A DNA stretch of 64,000 nucleotides from Eledone cirrhosa (taxonomy: Eukaryota): the NCBI GenBank assembly GCA_964016885.1, contig OZ024746.1, positions 82,336,001 to 82,400,000 on the forward strand, written 5' to 3'. Of the stretch, positions 20,005-51,818 are shown piece after piece. The notes below the pieces were generated by a model that was not told where the DNA came from, did not search any database, and saw only the letters and a program-made list of their open reading frames with translations. The translations under genes and the position numbers were made by a program. Numbering within the stretch: the stretch's first letter is position 1; every line of letters starts with the position of its first letter.

Positions 20005-20168
20005 ATGTATATATATATATATATATATATATATATATATATATATATATATATATATATATATATATATATATATATATATATATATATATATATATAT
20101 ATATATATATATATATATATATATATATATATATATATATATATATATATATATATATATATATATAT
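20005..20168. repeat. Pure (TA)n microsatellite
   Basis: About 80 essentially uninterrupted TA units. Confidence 0.97.
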
Positions 20169-20284
20169 AGTAATAATAATAATAAATTTGAAGACTAAAA
20201 TCCAAAGAGGGCTCGATAAGGATAAATATATATCAAATATATCAGAACCGTAGAGCAAATATTTATTAATCTGTTATTTTAATA

Positions 20285-23200
20285 AATATATATGTGTATA
20301 TATATATATATATATGTGTATATGTATGTATATATATATATGTATATATATATATGTATATATATATATGTGTATATATATATGTATATATATATGTATG
20401 TATATAGGTATGTATGTATATATATATATATATATATATGTATATATATATGTATATATATGTGTATATATATATATGTGTATATATATATATGTGTATA
20501 TATATATATGTGTATATATATATATGTGTATATATATATATATGTATATATATATAAGTGTATATATTTATATGTGTATATATATATATGTGTATATATA
20601 TATATGTGTATATATATATATGTGTATATATATATATATGTGTATATGTATATATATATATATATATGTGTATATATATATGTGTGTGTATATATATATG
20701 TGTATATATATATGTGTATATATATATATATGTGTATATATATATGTGTATATATATATGTGTATATATATATATATGTGTGTATATATATATATGTGTA
20801 TATATATATATATGTGTATATATATATATATGTGTATATATATATATATGTGTATATATATATATATGTGTATATATATATATATGTGTATATATATATA
20901 TATGTGTATATATATATATATGTGTATATATATATATATGTGTATATATATATATATGTGTATATATATATATATGTGTATATATATATATATGTGTATA
21001 TATATATATGTGTATATATATATATGTGTATATATATATATATGTGTATATATATATATATGTATATATATATATATATGTATATATATATGTATATATA
21101 TATATATATATGTATATATATATGTATATATATATATATATATGTATATATATATATATATATGTATATATATATATATATATGTATATATATATATGTA
21201 TATATATGTATGTATATATATATATGTATATATATATATGTATATATATATATGTATATATATATATATATATATGTATATATATATATGTATATATATA
21301 TATATATATATGTATATATATATATATATATGTATATATATATATATATATATGTATATATGTATATATATACATATATATGTGTGTATATATATATATG
21401 TGTGTATATATATATATATGTATATGTATATATGTATATATATATATATATGTATATATATATATGTATATATATATATATGTATATATGTATATATATA
21501 TATGTATATATATACATATATATGTGTGTATATATATATATGTGTGTATATATATATATGTGTGTATATATATATATGTGTATATATATATGTGTGTATG
21601 TATATGTGTGTATATATATATATATATATATGTGTATATATATGTGTGTATGTATATGTGTGTATATATATATATATATATATATGTGTATATATATATA
21701 TATATATATGTGTATATATATATATATATATATGTATATATATATATATGTGTATATATATATATGTGTATATATATATATATATATATGTGTATATATA
21801 TATATGTGTGTATATATATATATATATATATGTGTATATATATATATGTGTATATATATATATATGTGTATATATATATATATGTGTATATATATATATA
21901 TGTGTGTATATATATATGTGTATATATATATATATGTGTATATATATATAAGTGTATATATATATATGTGTATATATATATATATGTGTATATATATATA
22001 TATGTGTATATATATATATGTGTATATATATATATATGTGTATATATATATATATGTGTATATATATATATATGTGTATATATATATATGTGTGTATATA
22101 TATATGTGTGTATATATATATATGTGTATATATATATATATGTATATATATATATATGTATATATATATATATGTGTGTATATATATATGTGTGTGTATA
22201 TATATATGTGTGTGTATATATATATATGTGTGTATATATATATATGTGTGTATATATATATATGTGTATATATATATGTGTGTATATATATATGTGTGTA
22301 TATATATATGTGTGTATATATATATGTGTGTATATATATATGTGTGTATATATATATATGTGTGTATATATATATGTGTGTATATATATATGTGTATATA
22401 TATATATATGTGTATATATATATATATGTGTATATATATATATATGTGTATATATATATATATGTATATATATGTGTATATATATATATGTGTGTATATA
22501 TATATATGTGTATATATATATATGTGTATATATATATATATGTATATATATGTGTATATATATATATGTGTATATATATATATGTGTATATATATATATA
22601 TGTGTATATATATATATGTGTATATATATATATGTGTATATATATATATATGTGTATATATGTGTATATATATGTATATGTATATATGTATATATATATA
22701 TATATGTATATATATATATATATGTATATATATATATATATATGTATATATATATATATGTATATATATATATATATGTATATATATATATATGTATATA
22801 TATATATATGTATATATATATATATATGTATATATATATATATGTATATATATATATATGTATATATATATATATATGTATATATATATATATGTATATA
22901 TATATATATGTATATATATATATATATGTATATATATATATGTATATATATGTATATGTATATATATGTATATATATATATATGTATATATATGTATATA
23001 TATATATGTATATATATGTATATATATATATATGTATATATATGTATATATGTATATGTATATATGTATATATATATATGTATACATATGTATATGTATA
23101 TATATGTATATATATATATATGTATATATATATATATGTATATATATGTATATATATATATATATATATGTATATATATGTATATATATGTATATATATA

Positions 23201-49700: not shown

Positions 49701-50973
49701 TGAAGTTAGTGTTACAGATAGTTAAGTTATTTGTGTCGCAGAATTCCAGGATTCTGGAGCCTTCCTCATTTCTAGTACCGAACCCATAGCCTCCATGGAT
49801 TCCGTCATAGCCGTCACAATGTTGTCCAACGTGACCATTTAGGTCGCCTGCAATAACTATATAGTCACTGTCGGTTATTTGGGAGGTAGCGAGCATCAGT
49901 GTCTCGTAGAATCTGTCTTTTATAGCGCGGGGCAGTCCGGATTGGGGTGCGTACGCAGATATTACTGTCACCGTAGTTTTATTGAGGACAAGTCTTATTT
50001 TAATTATTCTGTCGTTCACTCTATTTACGTCTATTATCTTATCTGCCCACTTTTCTGCTACCATGATTCCTACCCCACCCAACCCATTGTCATTTCCCAC
50101 CCAGAAAAGCTTATAGCATCGCTCTTTACCCACGATGAATCTAGCCGACCCTCCCCTCCACCTGGTCTCTTGAATACAACAAACATCGACCTCCTTACGT
50201 TCAAGCATTTCTACAACCTCGTTAGAGCGACCCTTTAAGGTGCCTACATTCATGGTACCAACTCTGAAGTTTTGGATTGCGTTTGGAGGGTGGGAGCAGT
50301 GGGGCGCGGGGGGGGGGATGGGGTTATGTTAGCCATCCTGGGCCGAAACAAGGAGGAGTGCTTGCATTCTCGTCCACGAGGTGAATTTGGCTTTATCTTT
50401 GGCATTGTCGCTGAGCGTCCACATTTTTCTCTCTTCAACTCTCCAGAATTCCGTAGTCCATCCATCATATCGAAAAGCAACCAGTTAAGCGATAGTATGG
50501 GCCTCTGACTTATGATTGGTCCACGTAATAATGGTGGTGCGTGGGGGCGGGAGGGAGGGATGATGGGTTGTTAGCGAGAATGTAAGGTTTAAGATAAGAT
50601 CGCCGTATTTTGGGCATGATTTAACAATAAACGAAAATACAAGATTTGTTTTGTTTAAGAAATTACGGTAGAGAAAATGCGGTGATAGGGGAAATATGAT
50701 TTTTAGAGAAAAGATATGATATAGAATGGTGAAAATATGATATAGTGTGAATTTAGGACATAGAGGTGATTGAATGAATGGGTTCGAATGGAGAGAAGAA
50801 TCGAGAAAAAATTGGGCATAATTTAACAATAAACGAAAATACAAGATTTGTTTTGTTTAAGAAAATACGGTAGAGAAAATGCGGTGATAGGGGAAATATG
50901 ATTTTTAGAGAAAAGATATGATATAGAATGGTGAAAATATGATATAGTGTGAAATTATAGTGTGAAATTATAG
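46731..50973 (-). mobile_element. Apparently full-length RTE-clade LINE (family B, PHD-finger RT)
   Basis: (GAT)n tail at 46731-46747, ~490-nt 3' UTR, 1006-aa ORF and ~700-nt 5' region, with TA arrays on both sides. Confidence 0.92.
47233..50253 (-). CDS. APE endonuclease-reverse transcriptase with internal C4HC3 finger
   Basis: [100 protein letters not shown]. Confidence 0.94.
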   Translation of the reverse strand: MNVGTLKGRSNEVVEMLERKEVDVCCIQETRWRGGSARFIVGKERCYKLFWVGNDNGLGGVGIMVAEKWADKIIDVNRVNDRIIKIRLVLNKTTVTVISAYAPQSGLPRAIKDRFYETLMLATSQITDSDYIVIAGDLNGHVGQHCDGYDGIHGGYGFGTRNEEGSRILEFCDTNNLTICNTNFKKRDNHLITYRSGEHTSQVDYILTRRRDRVSVVNTKSHPHEEFTSQHRLIISDLIVRTRCTRQRKRTILRRKIWKLKDPIARNKFQSKLLDAFDSKEEQLESYNIEEQWEFLRANLLTAADEVCGWSRPVGRRRVTWWWNSKVEESIKAKKQAWKVWRDGGSREDYQVARREARRQVYFARREAEERKFKHVLQREDQKREVFRIARQCVKENRDIVGEKCVLNDDGILAITDADKKVAWKCHYERLLNEENKWEKDSLPQIDPIEGPAVLVEGSIISKAIKDMKTGKAAGPSEIVAEMLKASGSVGHTMVTRIVNQVVQNGVVPKEWRSSIIVNCYKGKGDALDRSNYRGIKLIDQVMKVTEKVIAQLIRERIDLDEMQFGFVSGKSTTDALFIVRQLQEKYLAKSKPLYLAFVDLEKAFDRVPRSIIWWSLRKLGVDEWLVRAIQAMYKETVSKVRINNEYSEEFSVKVGVHQGSVLSPLLFIIALQAITEEFKTGCPWELLYADDLTLIAESMTELEKKFQTWKHGLESKGLKINMAKTKVLVCRKENKAAVPSGKWPCSVCRKGVGRNSILCPKCKVWVHKRCSGITGKLTKNIDFTCGRCSGAISSSKCPQNTSSFNCAEGSKEIVDSFRYLGDKISSGGGCSESTVARVRTGWKKFRDLIPLLAARGFSLKMKGRLYDACIRTAMLHGSETWALCAEDIRRLERNEACMLRWMCNSNIRERQSINELRKKLEIRGIRCCLLERRLRWYGHVMRMKDDSCITKCRAIKIDGSHGVGRPRKTWDELINSDLTRLHLSKTMSLDRDLWRYSVIEKTRLT

Positions 50974-51818
50974 TATATATATATATATGTATGTATATAT
51001 ATATATATGTATGTATATATATATATATGTATGTATATATATATATATGTATGTATATATATATATATGTATGTATATATATATGTATGTATGTGTATAT
51101 ATATATATATGTATGTATATATATATATATATGTATGTATATGTATGTATGTATATGTATATATGTATGTATATATATATATGTATATATATATATATAT
51201 ATATATATGTATATATATGTATATATATATATATATATATATATGTATATATATGTATATATGTATATATATGTATGTATATATATGTATATATGTATAT
51301 ATATGTATATATGTATATATATGTATGTATATATATGTATATATGTATATATATGTATATGTATATATGTATATATATGTATGTGTATATATATATATGT
51401 ATATATGTATATATATGTATGTGTATATATATATATATGTATATATGTATATATATGTATATGTATATATGTATATATATGTATGTGTGTGTATATATAT
51501 ATATATATATATATATATATGTATATATATGTATGTGTATATATATATATATGTATATATGTATATATATGTATATGTATATATGTATATATATGTATGT
51601 GTATATATATATATATGTATATATGTATATATATGTATATGTATATATGTATATATATGTATGTGTATATATATATATATGTATATATGTATATATATGT
51701 ATATGTATATATGTATATATATGTATGTGTGTGTATATATATATATATATATATATATGTATATATATGTATGTATGTATTTATATGTATATATATATAT
51801 GTATATATATATATATAT
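50974..51818. repeat. (TA)n/(TATG)n array
   Basis: Direct reading. Confidence 0.97.

Follow-up and report, generated by a model that had tools for sequence, protein, structure and literature searches.

Several young retroelement families in the genome of Eledone cirrhosa lie in TA arrays far above chance, and it is probable that eight copies successively entered one intronic tract whose pieces lengthened on their own. The window is a stretch of 64,000 nucleotides of contig OZ024746.1, and its features are listed in Table 1. The observation of a nest made in the original prediction is confirmed, with corrections, and the nest is not unique to this intron; it is one among many in the genome.

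The nest consists of 15,772 bp of arrays, 15,851 bp of elements and 200 bp of gap. Since these add up to all of its 31,823 bp, no ordinary intron DNA is left, in keeping with the claim that there was almost none between the elements. The seven elements named earlier were all found where they had been placed, and at each of their 13 sequenced junctions the element adjoins a TA/TATG array, either immediately or across an AT-rich linker of less than 20 bp. The large arrays measure 446–4,386 bp, matching the 0.4–4.4 kb first given. The count of five families had to be revised, as an eighth element (20170–20285) brings it to six and adds a ninth array of 174 bp. Array coverage is 49.7% in the nest and 0.9% in the rest of the window, and reaches 4.9% in 20 arbitrarily placed 10-kb stretches elsewhere. 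The assembled size of the nest may differ from its true size, since the gap lies within it and conceals where CR1 copy 2 ends on its 3' side.

Table 1. Features of the nest and its surroundings, in window positions; G and C are counts on the + strand of the arrays
Feature	Positions	Strand	Description
Host-gene exon upstream of nest	7991..8042	+	AG/GT-bounded; in phase with next exon
Nest, whole	19996-51818		31,823 bp; nine TA arrays, eight elements, 200-N gap
Array A0	19996..20169	.	174 bp; G5, C0
Eighth element, overlooked earlier	20170..20285	.	116-bp end of non-coding repeat family with inverted tail-out copies
Array A1	20286..24671	.	4,386 bp; G459, C6
RTE-A, full-length	24672..27986	-	single open frame of 1,056 aa (APE + RT), (TAGA)n tail
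Array A2	27987..30189	.	2,203 bp; G179, C4
Penelope-like element, 3' end	30190..30758	+	final ORF codons and terminal repeat
Array A3	30759..32584	.	1,826 bp; G158, C14; TATG-rich beside bipartite RTE
Bipartite RTE-type, non-autonomous	32585..33215	+	631 bp
Array A4	33216..35240	.	2,025 bp; G181, C4
CR1-type copy 1	35241..38531	+	5'-truncated (without ORF1), ORF2 frameshifted, 3' tail intact
Array A5	38532..39573	.	at least 1,042 bp (ends at gap)
Assembly gap	39574-39773	.	200 N, not a measured length
CR1-type copy 2	39774..41640	-	5'-truncated; 3' end inside gap
Array A6	41641..42086	.	446 bp; G30, C2
Older RTE-PHD	42087..43888	-	cut at both ends; lacks final 553 bp including tail; 3' break adjoins TA
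Array A7	43889..46712	.	2,824 bp; G253, C9
RTE-PHD, apparently full-length	46713..50972	-	open frame of 1,031 aa (APE, RT, PHD finger), (GAT)n tail
Array A8	50973..51818	.	846 bp; G98, C0
Host-gene exon downstream of nest	55050..55108	+	AG/GT-bounded; frame runs on from 7991-8042 exon

The nest makes up 67.7% of its host intron (8043–55049, 47,007 bp), which bears out the earlier figure of about two thirds. The host gene is assigned to the aldose-1-epimerase family: its last exon, outside the window in locus L233, has a PF01263 match slightly below the cutoff (E 7e-6, 26.1 bits; cutoff 27). From its motifs, it is probably glucose-6-phosphate 1-epimerase. A Pfam search with the two small window exons by themselves gave no matches, and an ORF lying 3.4 kb beyond the window's left edge had no homologue. 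Of the short-read contigs, X1 and X2 start at the right edge of A8 and X5 and X6 have nothing there; none has exon joints, and they are uninformative either way.

RTE-A and RTE-PHD each have one ORF with an APE endonuclease and RT (Pfam Exo_endo_phos(_2) and RVT_1), with catalytic motifs present, and both carry microsatellite-like 3' tails in place of poly(A). From this structure, they are presumably RTE elements. RTE-A diverges from its closest copies by 0.17%, and the RTE-PHD architecture is widespread (257 relatives, E <= 1e-100). The older RTE-PHD copy is 94% identical to the full copy and at least 3.95% from every copy compared; being broken at both ends and about 4% diverged, it is older than the other elements. 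The CR1-type family combines APE motifs and RVT_1 with a repeated 7-bp 3' tail and, in longer copies, an upstream ORF-like region; we assume that it belongs to CR1 and not to L2 or a related clade. The role of RTE tails is discussed elsewhere (PMC6007223). In the bipartite RTE, the 5' part is 69–74% identical to the corresponding 5' region of the RTE at locus L223 and the 3' part encodes a C2H2-like ORF end. It shows 0% substitutions against its closest copies; no autonomous parent was found, both ends resembling the local RTE at only about 70%.

The Penelope-like end is 99.8% identical to copies, often inverted pairs, that carry an ORF with RT and, C-terminally, a GIY-YIG motif. Locus L160 shows YVDD and GIY-YIG-like motifs along with CCHH residues; Pfam yields just a weak RVT_1 match in locus L155, with the GIY-YIG family unmatched. 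The family has a pseudo-LTR layout, with inverted pairs and one tandem copy, and an extension of about 50–60 nt on 12 of 29 ends (best 30 of 40 candidates). It also has a CX4CXXC, which fits the CX2-5CxxC linker between RT and EN of the Neptune/Nematis clades, to which it may belong. The terminal repeat holds a hammerhead core-like motif by pattern match, and Rfam detects no hammerhead. The 116-bp family, whose inverted structure is visible in locus L188, is likely Penelope-type; Rfam searches of its loci returned only matches below the cutoff, which are TA-repeat noise. On these motifs, both APE-type and GIY-YIG-type elements appear to take part in the nest.

The preference for TA extends genome-wide. 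From 40 scored candidates, each search kept the best 30, which are therefore the youngest look-alikes, and the 3'-end queries favor copies with intact 3' ends. By a strict 12-bp TA test of the 3' junction, self excluded, background positions score 3.6–4.2%. Among these best 30 of 40, the junction was in TA for 24/29 copies of RTE-A, 26/29 of CR1 and 25/29 of the bipartite RTE. The outer ends of Penelope, judged by eye in the best 30 of 40, lie in TA at 27 of 29, the other two continuing into the ORF, and in the 116-bp family the tail is followed by TA over 12 bp or more at 18 of 19 other loci (40 candidates scored). Docking is thus near total in these best-scored copies (83–95%). RTE-PHD is not microsatellite-specific: 18 of its best 30 of 40 copies are in TA and 12 miss it, a bias only. 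The enrichment that the original prediction had asked for is therefore strong against the background of about 4% in RTE-A, CR1, the bipartite RTE and Penelope, but loose in RTE-PHD. On the 5' side, TA occurs within 25 bp at 25/29 full-length and 9/15 truncated RTE-A copies, 12/13 CR1 copies and 13/16 RTE-PHD copies. A shared landing pad for APE- and GIY-YIG-encoding elements, as first proposed, agrees with the presence of both types in the nest and the genome-wide docking of their families. In a larger nest, at G000:C4:207.97-208.04 Mb, the same five families occur and arrays take up 23.8 kb of the 70 kb.

Presumably, the family endonuclease nicks TA-rich DNA (APE for RTE and CR1, GIY-YIG for Penelope), and reverse transcription would be primed where the tail of the family overlaps a short AT stretch. 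Alternatively, fragile long TA arrays could have been patched with retroelement cDNA during repair and not targeted by an endonuclease, an entry route that has been put forward for florendoviruses of plants. In cancer cells, TA tracts are reported to be fragile (PMC13645644), such fragility has been invoked for florendovirus entry (PMC4241990), and a 3' break lies directly at TA in the older RTE-PHD and in the CR1 of locus L192. However, the tail is reached in 29 of 30 RTE-PHD copies (best 30 of 40; query 330–600 bp from the end), and many target arrays are too short for fragility. The bias is unequal among families, and insertions of the bipartite RTE follow the TATG strand in their orientation (13 G/G, 1 G/unclear, 0 C; n = 14), which fits targeting and not passive capture. 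We consider entry by repair unlikely.

The arrays themselves point to a common history. G exceeds C on the + strand in 9/9 arrays, regardless of element strand, and 18/18 arrays of the G000:C4 nest are likewise G-polarised. Genome-wide, 33 two-sided copies have flanks of the same polarity in 28 cases, of opposite polarity in none and unclear in 5, and the two flanks of one copy resemble each other more than mismatched flanks do (cosine 0.77 vs. 0.46; reached by 0/300 permutations). Arrays A4 and A7, on opposite sides of the gap, have in common a 107-bp exact string (33972–34078) and a GTAC-bearing 30-mer, both absent from all other loci compared. Together, these support the proposal of one ancestral TA tract, which is the best reading of the nest. 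Flank similarity over junctions inside the nest is uneven (0.41–0.95). A regional polarity was ruled out as the source of the G bias, since unrelated neighboring arrays agree in only 12/24 cases, and so was an origin in gene strand (transcription), with 20 vs. 17 arrays (p 0.74) in 40 kinase-gene stretches. Of the kinase-gene stretches with arrays above 500 bp, 3/3 carry G on the sense strand.

The arrays might instead have been made by the elements, seeded by their tails or carried along, which would make an earlier tract unnecessary. AT steps occur in all tails, that of the bipartite RTE agrees with the TATG variant, and for shrimp a model of elements as carriers has been proposed (PMC7878876). 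Against this, the polarity in CR1, RTE-A and RTE-PHD tracks the site, not the element (9 G/G, 6 C/C), and it is common to the 5' flank, beyond the reach of a 3' tail. The flank variants differ among loci and are thus not carried by the elements, which leaves such an origin decidedly unlikely.

With a 200-N gap in the nest and two CR1 copies that are 99.4% identical, it might also be asked whether mis-joins through simple repeats created the structure, the second CR1 being a false inverted duplicate. Copy 2, however, differs at eight of nine tested sites by alleles present in at least four other family copies. Since these alleles segregate in the family, an assembly duplicate was ruled out, and copy 2 is likely a separate insertion. 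The private strings of A4 and A7 span the gap and polarity is equal on both sides of it, the exons to either side keep their order and phase, and the arrays contain ordered higher-order variants, unlike random error. An artefact is very improbable.

Successive entry into one ancestral tract leaves the question of how its pieces grew. A longer array would be a bigger target and collect more copies, while slippage and unequal exchange would grow each piece to about 4 kb and spread its variants. Exact internal duplicates of 59–171 bp occur in every array, and in A5 the CATATG variant is found 17 times in the first 500 bp and 0 times in the 500 bp across the young CR1. Because of these duplicates and the one-sided run, the arrays probably regrew after insertion. 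The run could alternatively be an older domain boundary.

The original prediction went further and had insertion trigger re-expansion; this might happen, for instance, if a length-capped array is split and each half can regrow, or through nicks and repair at the junction. Signs of regrowth are present as it foresaw, but insertion as the driver is not borne out: 35 of 117 young copies, pooled from the best-scored ones, have an array of at least 400 bp on the 3' side (30%), and such arrays hold 26% of background array bases, an estimate from only 6 long arrays. Targeting in proportion to length therefore suffices. Many young copies are also flanked on both sides by arrays below 50 bp. In CR1, however, 15/29 copies (best 30 of 40) have a 3' array of at least 400 bp, more than the length share, so that insertion-driven growth keeps some room. 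Also in favor of the loop, besides the one-sided run, an uninterrupted array above 4.4 kb was never seen in the window and the mapped 10-kb stretches, yet the arrays of the nest total 15.8 kb; assembly limits may create such an apparent cap. It is thus possible that insertion itself speeds growth, but we find the two-way loop doubtful as an account of the nest. Breakage and tandem duplication also appear to shape TA nests, and occasional breaks at arrays would delete element ends or duplicate element-plus-array units.

Microsatellite bias is known from the Naiad and Neptune Penelope-like elements (PMC8557442). The family described here resembles them in its (TA)n target (a preference stated for Naiad), in the 5'-truncated partner lying inverted to it, and in its terminal tail and CX2-5CxxC linker, but differs in combining a C-terminal endonuclease (the Neptune/Nematis layout) with tails of about 50–60 nt and in having its arrays in common with APE-type LINEs. 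Whole families that insert in one simple repeat include Waldo (ACAY), Mino (AC), Kibi (TC), Koshi (TTC), Dong (TAA) and the MITE Micron (TA) (PMC3812793); the list as available from that source names neither an RTE- or CR1-type family nor a TA-targeting LINE, whereas here several unrelated families use TA. In penaeid shrimp, young Penelope and RTE-BovB elements likewise occur with long (AT)n, and SSR elongation after transposition is reported; the TEs there are read as SSR carriers, while the flank variants here point to a tract that was there before, and the nests resolved here extend over tens of kb (PMC7878876). The CUS-TR24 array of Cuscuta europaea was similarly broken up through targeted insertion of LINEs, expansion of SSRs and segmental duplication, but involves a single L1 lineage with a satellite as target, (TAA)n and heterochromatin instead of six families in an intronic dinucleotide (PMC8091179). 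Florendoviruses also lie between TA tracts with TG/CA interruptions that predate the insert; their proposed entry is through break repair, whereas most copies here retain family tails and encode endonucleases (PMC4241990; 10.1101/2020.12.02.407783). No account of RTE, CR1 and Penelope in common kilobase TA tracts, or of multi-family TA nests in cephalopods, was found in the literature covered, which was that of openly accessible papers in their main text. The 2026 Octopus vulgaris annotation maps TE hotspots, and the terms “nested” and “insertion preference” are absent from its main text (PMC13282606).

The nest is a matter of genome architecture, with no sign of host function. The G/C polarity and rare variants of its interrupted arrays are a usable lineage tag for ordering insertions, and its families are testable cases of RTE- and CR1-type endonucleases with a (TA)n bias. 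It is conceivable, although we think it unlikely, that the RTE, CR1 and Penelope endonucleases of this octopod lineage converged on (TA)n, that insertions free capped arrays to regrow, and that self-feeding nests are a main engine behind the growth of introns and genome and behind the TE hotspots of octopuses. TA-docked nests offer a sequence-level cause for the TE hotspots and very long introns of octopods.

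The window is C6:82,336,001-82,400,000 of the 3.0-Gb assembly G000, and the nest (Table) occupies its positions 19996-51818. By window segmentation the nest comprises nine TA-dominated arrays of 174, 4386, 2203, 1826, 2025, 1042, 446, 2824 and 846 bp, interleaved with eight elements and one 200-N gap. Together these sum to the full 31,823 bp. The original observation of a 32-kb nest of TA-docked retroelements is borne out and slightly extended. Arrays cover 49.7% of the nest, 0.9% of the remaining window and 4.9% of 20 arbitrary 10-kb stretches. The nest makes up 67.7% of a 47,007-bp host intron. 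The last exon of the host gene matches Aldose_epim (Pfam, E 7e-6, slightly below the family's cut-off). An exon of the nearby MTHFR gene shares 81% identity with Octopus vulgaris and 70% with Argonauta, which points to an octopod genome. A Separase gene lies to the right of the window on the minus strand. In background DNA, the commonest neighbours of TA arrays are old members of the RTE-PHD-like family seen in the nest's left wall.

Table. Features in and around the nest
Feature	Window positions	Location	Remarks
Older RTE-PHD relatives (~90% and 75%)	10096-10777, 404-567, 58584-60340	beyond nest	no long TA arrays around them
Host-gene exon	7991-8042	left of nest	in phase with 55050-55108
TG-rich tract	19481-19653	precedes left wall	
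Old RTE-PHD-like 3' end and SINE-like piece	19654-19995	left wall of nest	
Nest	19996-51818	host intron	
Hammerhead-like core of the Penelope terminal repeat	30506-30548	in nest	by pattern match; no confirmation from Rfam
Full RTE-PHD, 5' region	50610-50957	in nest	146-bp tandem duplication; no match among other loci compared
Host-gene exon	55050-55108	right of nest	further exons to its right

Pfam finds RT in five of the nest elements, a PHD finger in two and APE in both full-length copies. The ORFs of RTE-A and of the right-hand RTE-PHD are complete and show the motifs of APE and RT. The RTE and CR1 clade names are provisional assignments based on structure. The 569-bp piece is the terminal part of a Penelope-like family, whose 99.8% relatives are often arranged as inverted pairs and carry an RT ORF closing with a CX4CXXC linker and GIY-YIG-like motifs; Pfam makes no call for the endonuclease of this ORF. 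The 631-bp bipartite element has RTE-like ends and lacks the body. The 116-bp piece comes from the end of another family, the sixth in the nest, which is non-coding and has inverted copies with their tails facing out; at one other locus (L286), such an element lies with its TA flanks inside an inverted repeat of greater length, in the loop. The left RTE-PHD copy has neither end. The two CR1 copies are 99.4% alike, and copy 2 is likely a separate insertion, since 8 of the 9 differences tested occur as alleles in other family members. Six elements diverge from their closest copies by 0-0.2%, the 116-bp piece by 1% and the broken RTE-PHD by 4%. At the rate used in PMC13282606 (0.09 = 25 My), which comes from a different genus and is intended for distance to consensus, the age of most of the nest would come to about one million years or less.

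Docking was scored at the best 30 of 40 candidates per search (best 20 for the 116-bp family), picked by internal sequence with the flank ignored and the window's own copy excluded. Among these best-scored loci, 3' junctions passed a strict 12-bp TA test in 24/29 cases for RTE-A, 26/29 for CR1, 25/29 for the bipartite RTE and 18/30 for RTE-PHD, against a background rate of 3.6-4.2%; failures in the first three were mostly short or interrupted TA runs. Penelope outer ends abut TA in 27 of 29 loci; for the 116-bp family the figure is 18/19. At the 5' side, TA was found for full-length RTE-A in 25/29, truncated RTE-A in 9/15, CR1 in 12/13 and RTE-PHD in 13/16; several of the failures are 5' inversions. 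At 92 loci the 3' array could be followed to its far end, and in 17 of them another copy of the same families or of their older relatives came directly after it. Some 70-90 kb left of the window (L222-L223), other LINEs ending in (TAA)n runs are interleaved with a different RTE; these LINEs are apparently of the restriction-like-endonuclease type.

The TG interruptions lie on the plus strand in all nine nest arrays (e.g., G459:C6), whereas the elements are found in either orientation. Of the other copies, 33 have arrays of 100 bp or more on each side; flank polarity was the same in 28 of these, unclear in 5 and opposite in none. Polarity tracks the site for CR1, RTE-A and RTE-PHD (9 G/G, 6 C/C), while in 13/14 copies of the bipartite RTE the orientation matches the TATG strand. 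Matched flanks had a similarity of 0.77 versus 0.46 for mismatched ones, and the true partner ranked first in 12/33. A regional cause of the shared polarity is excluded, as unrelated neighbouring arrays agree in 12/24 and arrays in kinase-gene stretches divide 20 to 17 by gene strand. Arrays longer than 500 bp occur in three of the kinase-gene stretches (L352, L361, L369), and in each of them, as in the nest, G is on the sense strand, a number too small for statistics. The reading of one ancestral TA tract as a shared landing pad is thus supported by genome-wide docking and by the polarity common to the nine arrays. Arrays A4 and A7, three elements and the gap apart, share two strings absent from all other loci compared, an exact one of 107 bp and one bearing GTAC, which supports the single-tract reading and the scaffold join as well.

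It had further been proposed that each insertion splits the tract and the halves re-expand in a self-reinforcing loop, and half of this holds. Growth after insertion is likely, because every nest array contains exact internal duplicates of 59-171 bp, a CATATG variant in A5 occurs 17 times in the 500 bp adjoining the tail of the young CR1 versus none on the other side, and the longest unbroken array observed does not exceed 4.4 kb against a nest total of 15.8 kb. That insertion causes the growth is not demonstrated, since a 3'-side array of at least 400 bp flanks 35/117 young copies (30%; CR1 is the exception, 15/29) and background arrays of that length, 6/333 by number, hold 26% of array bases.

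Other processes also shape arrays and elements, namely 3'-end loss at the TA boundary, as in the older RTE-PHD, and probably tandem duplication. Identical element-plus-array units stand in tandem at C20:9.87 Mb (L039/L040, 314-bp CR1 stubs) and C28:107.32 Mb (L283, two bipartite RTEs), and a 57-bp spacer is present twice, about 4 kb apart, in a nest on C4. These repeats suggest tandem duplication, of whole units at C20 and C28; assembly error is the alternative there.

Each ingredient of the nest has a precedent. Published work describes a (TA)n bias of Naiad Penelope-like elements, with a linker hypothesis for Neptune (PMC8557442), microsatellite-targeting LINEs and Micron (PMC3812793), shrimp Penelope and RTE-BovB associated with long AT repeats (PMC7878876), satellite loci fragmented by LINEs (PMC8091179), plant pararetroviruses located in TA (PMC4241990, 10.1101/2020.12.02.407783), RTE tail-target pairing (PMC6007223) and TA fragility (PMC13645644). 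Octopus RTE is treated in PMC9115989, where no "target site" passage was found. Multi-clade, kilobase, polarised TA nests in an octopod had no counterpart in the literature searched.

Within this genome the nest has company. A larger one, at C4:207,970,001-208,040,000 (L264-L270, 70 kb), holds 23.8 kb of arrays and no gap, with RTE-A, CR1, RTE-PHD, bipartite RTE and Penelope, and 18/18 arrays are G-polarised. Eight more stretches, chosen for long flanks, contain smaller nests of like kind. Because the families are TA-docked genome-wide and similar nests occur elsewhere, the nest in the window is an extreme case of a common pattern.
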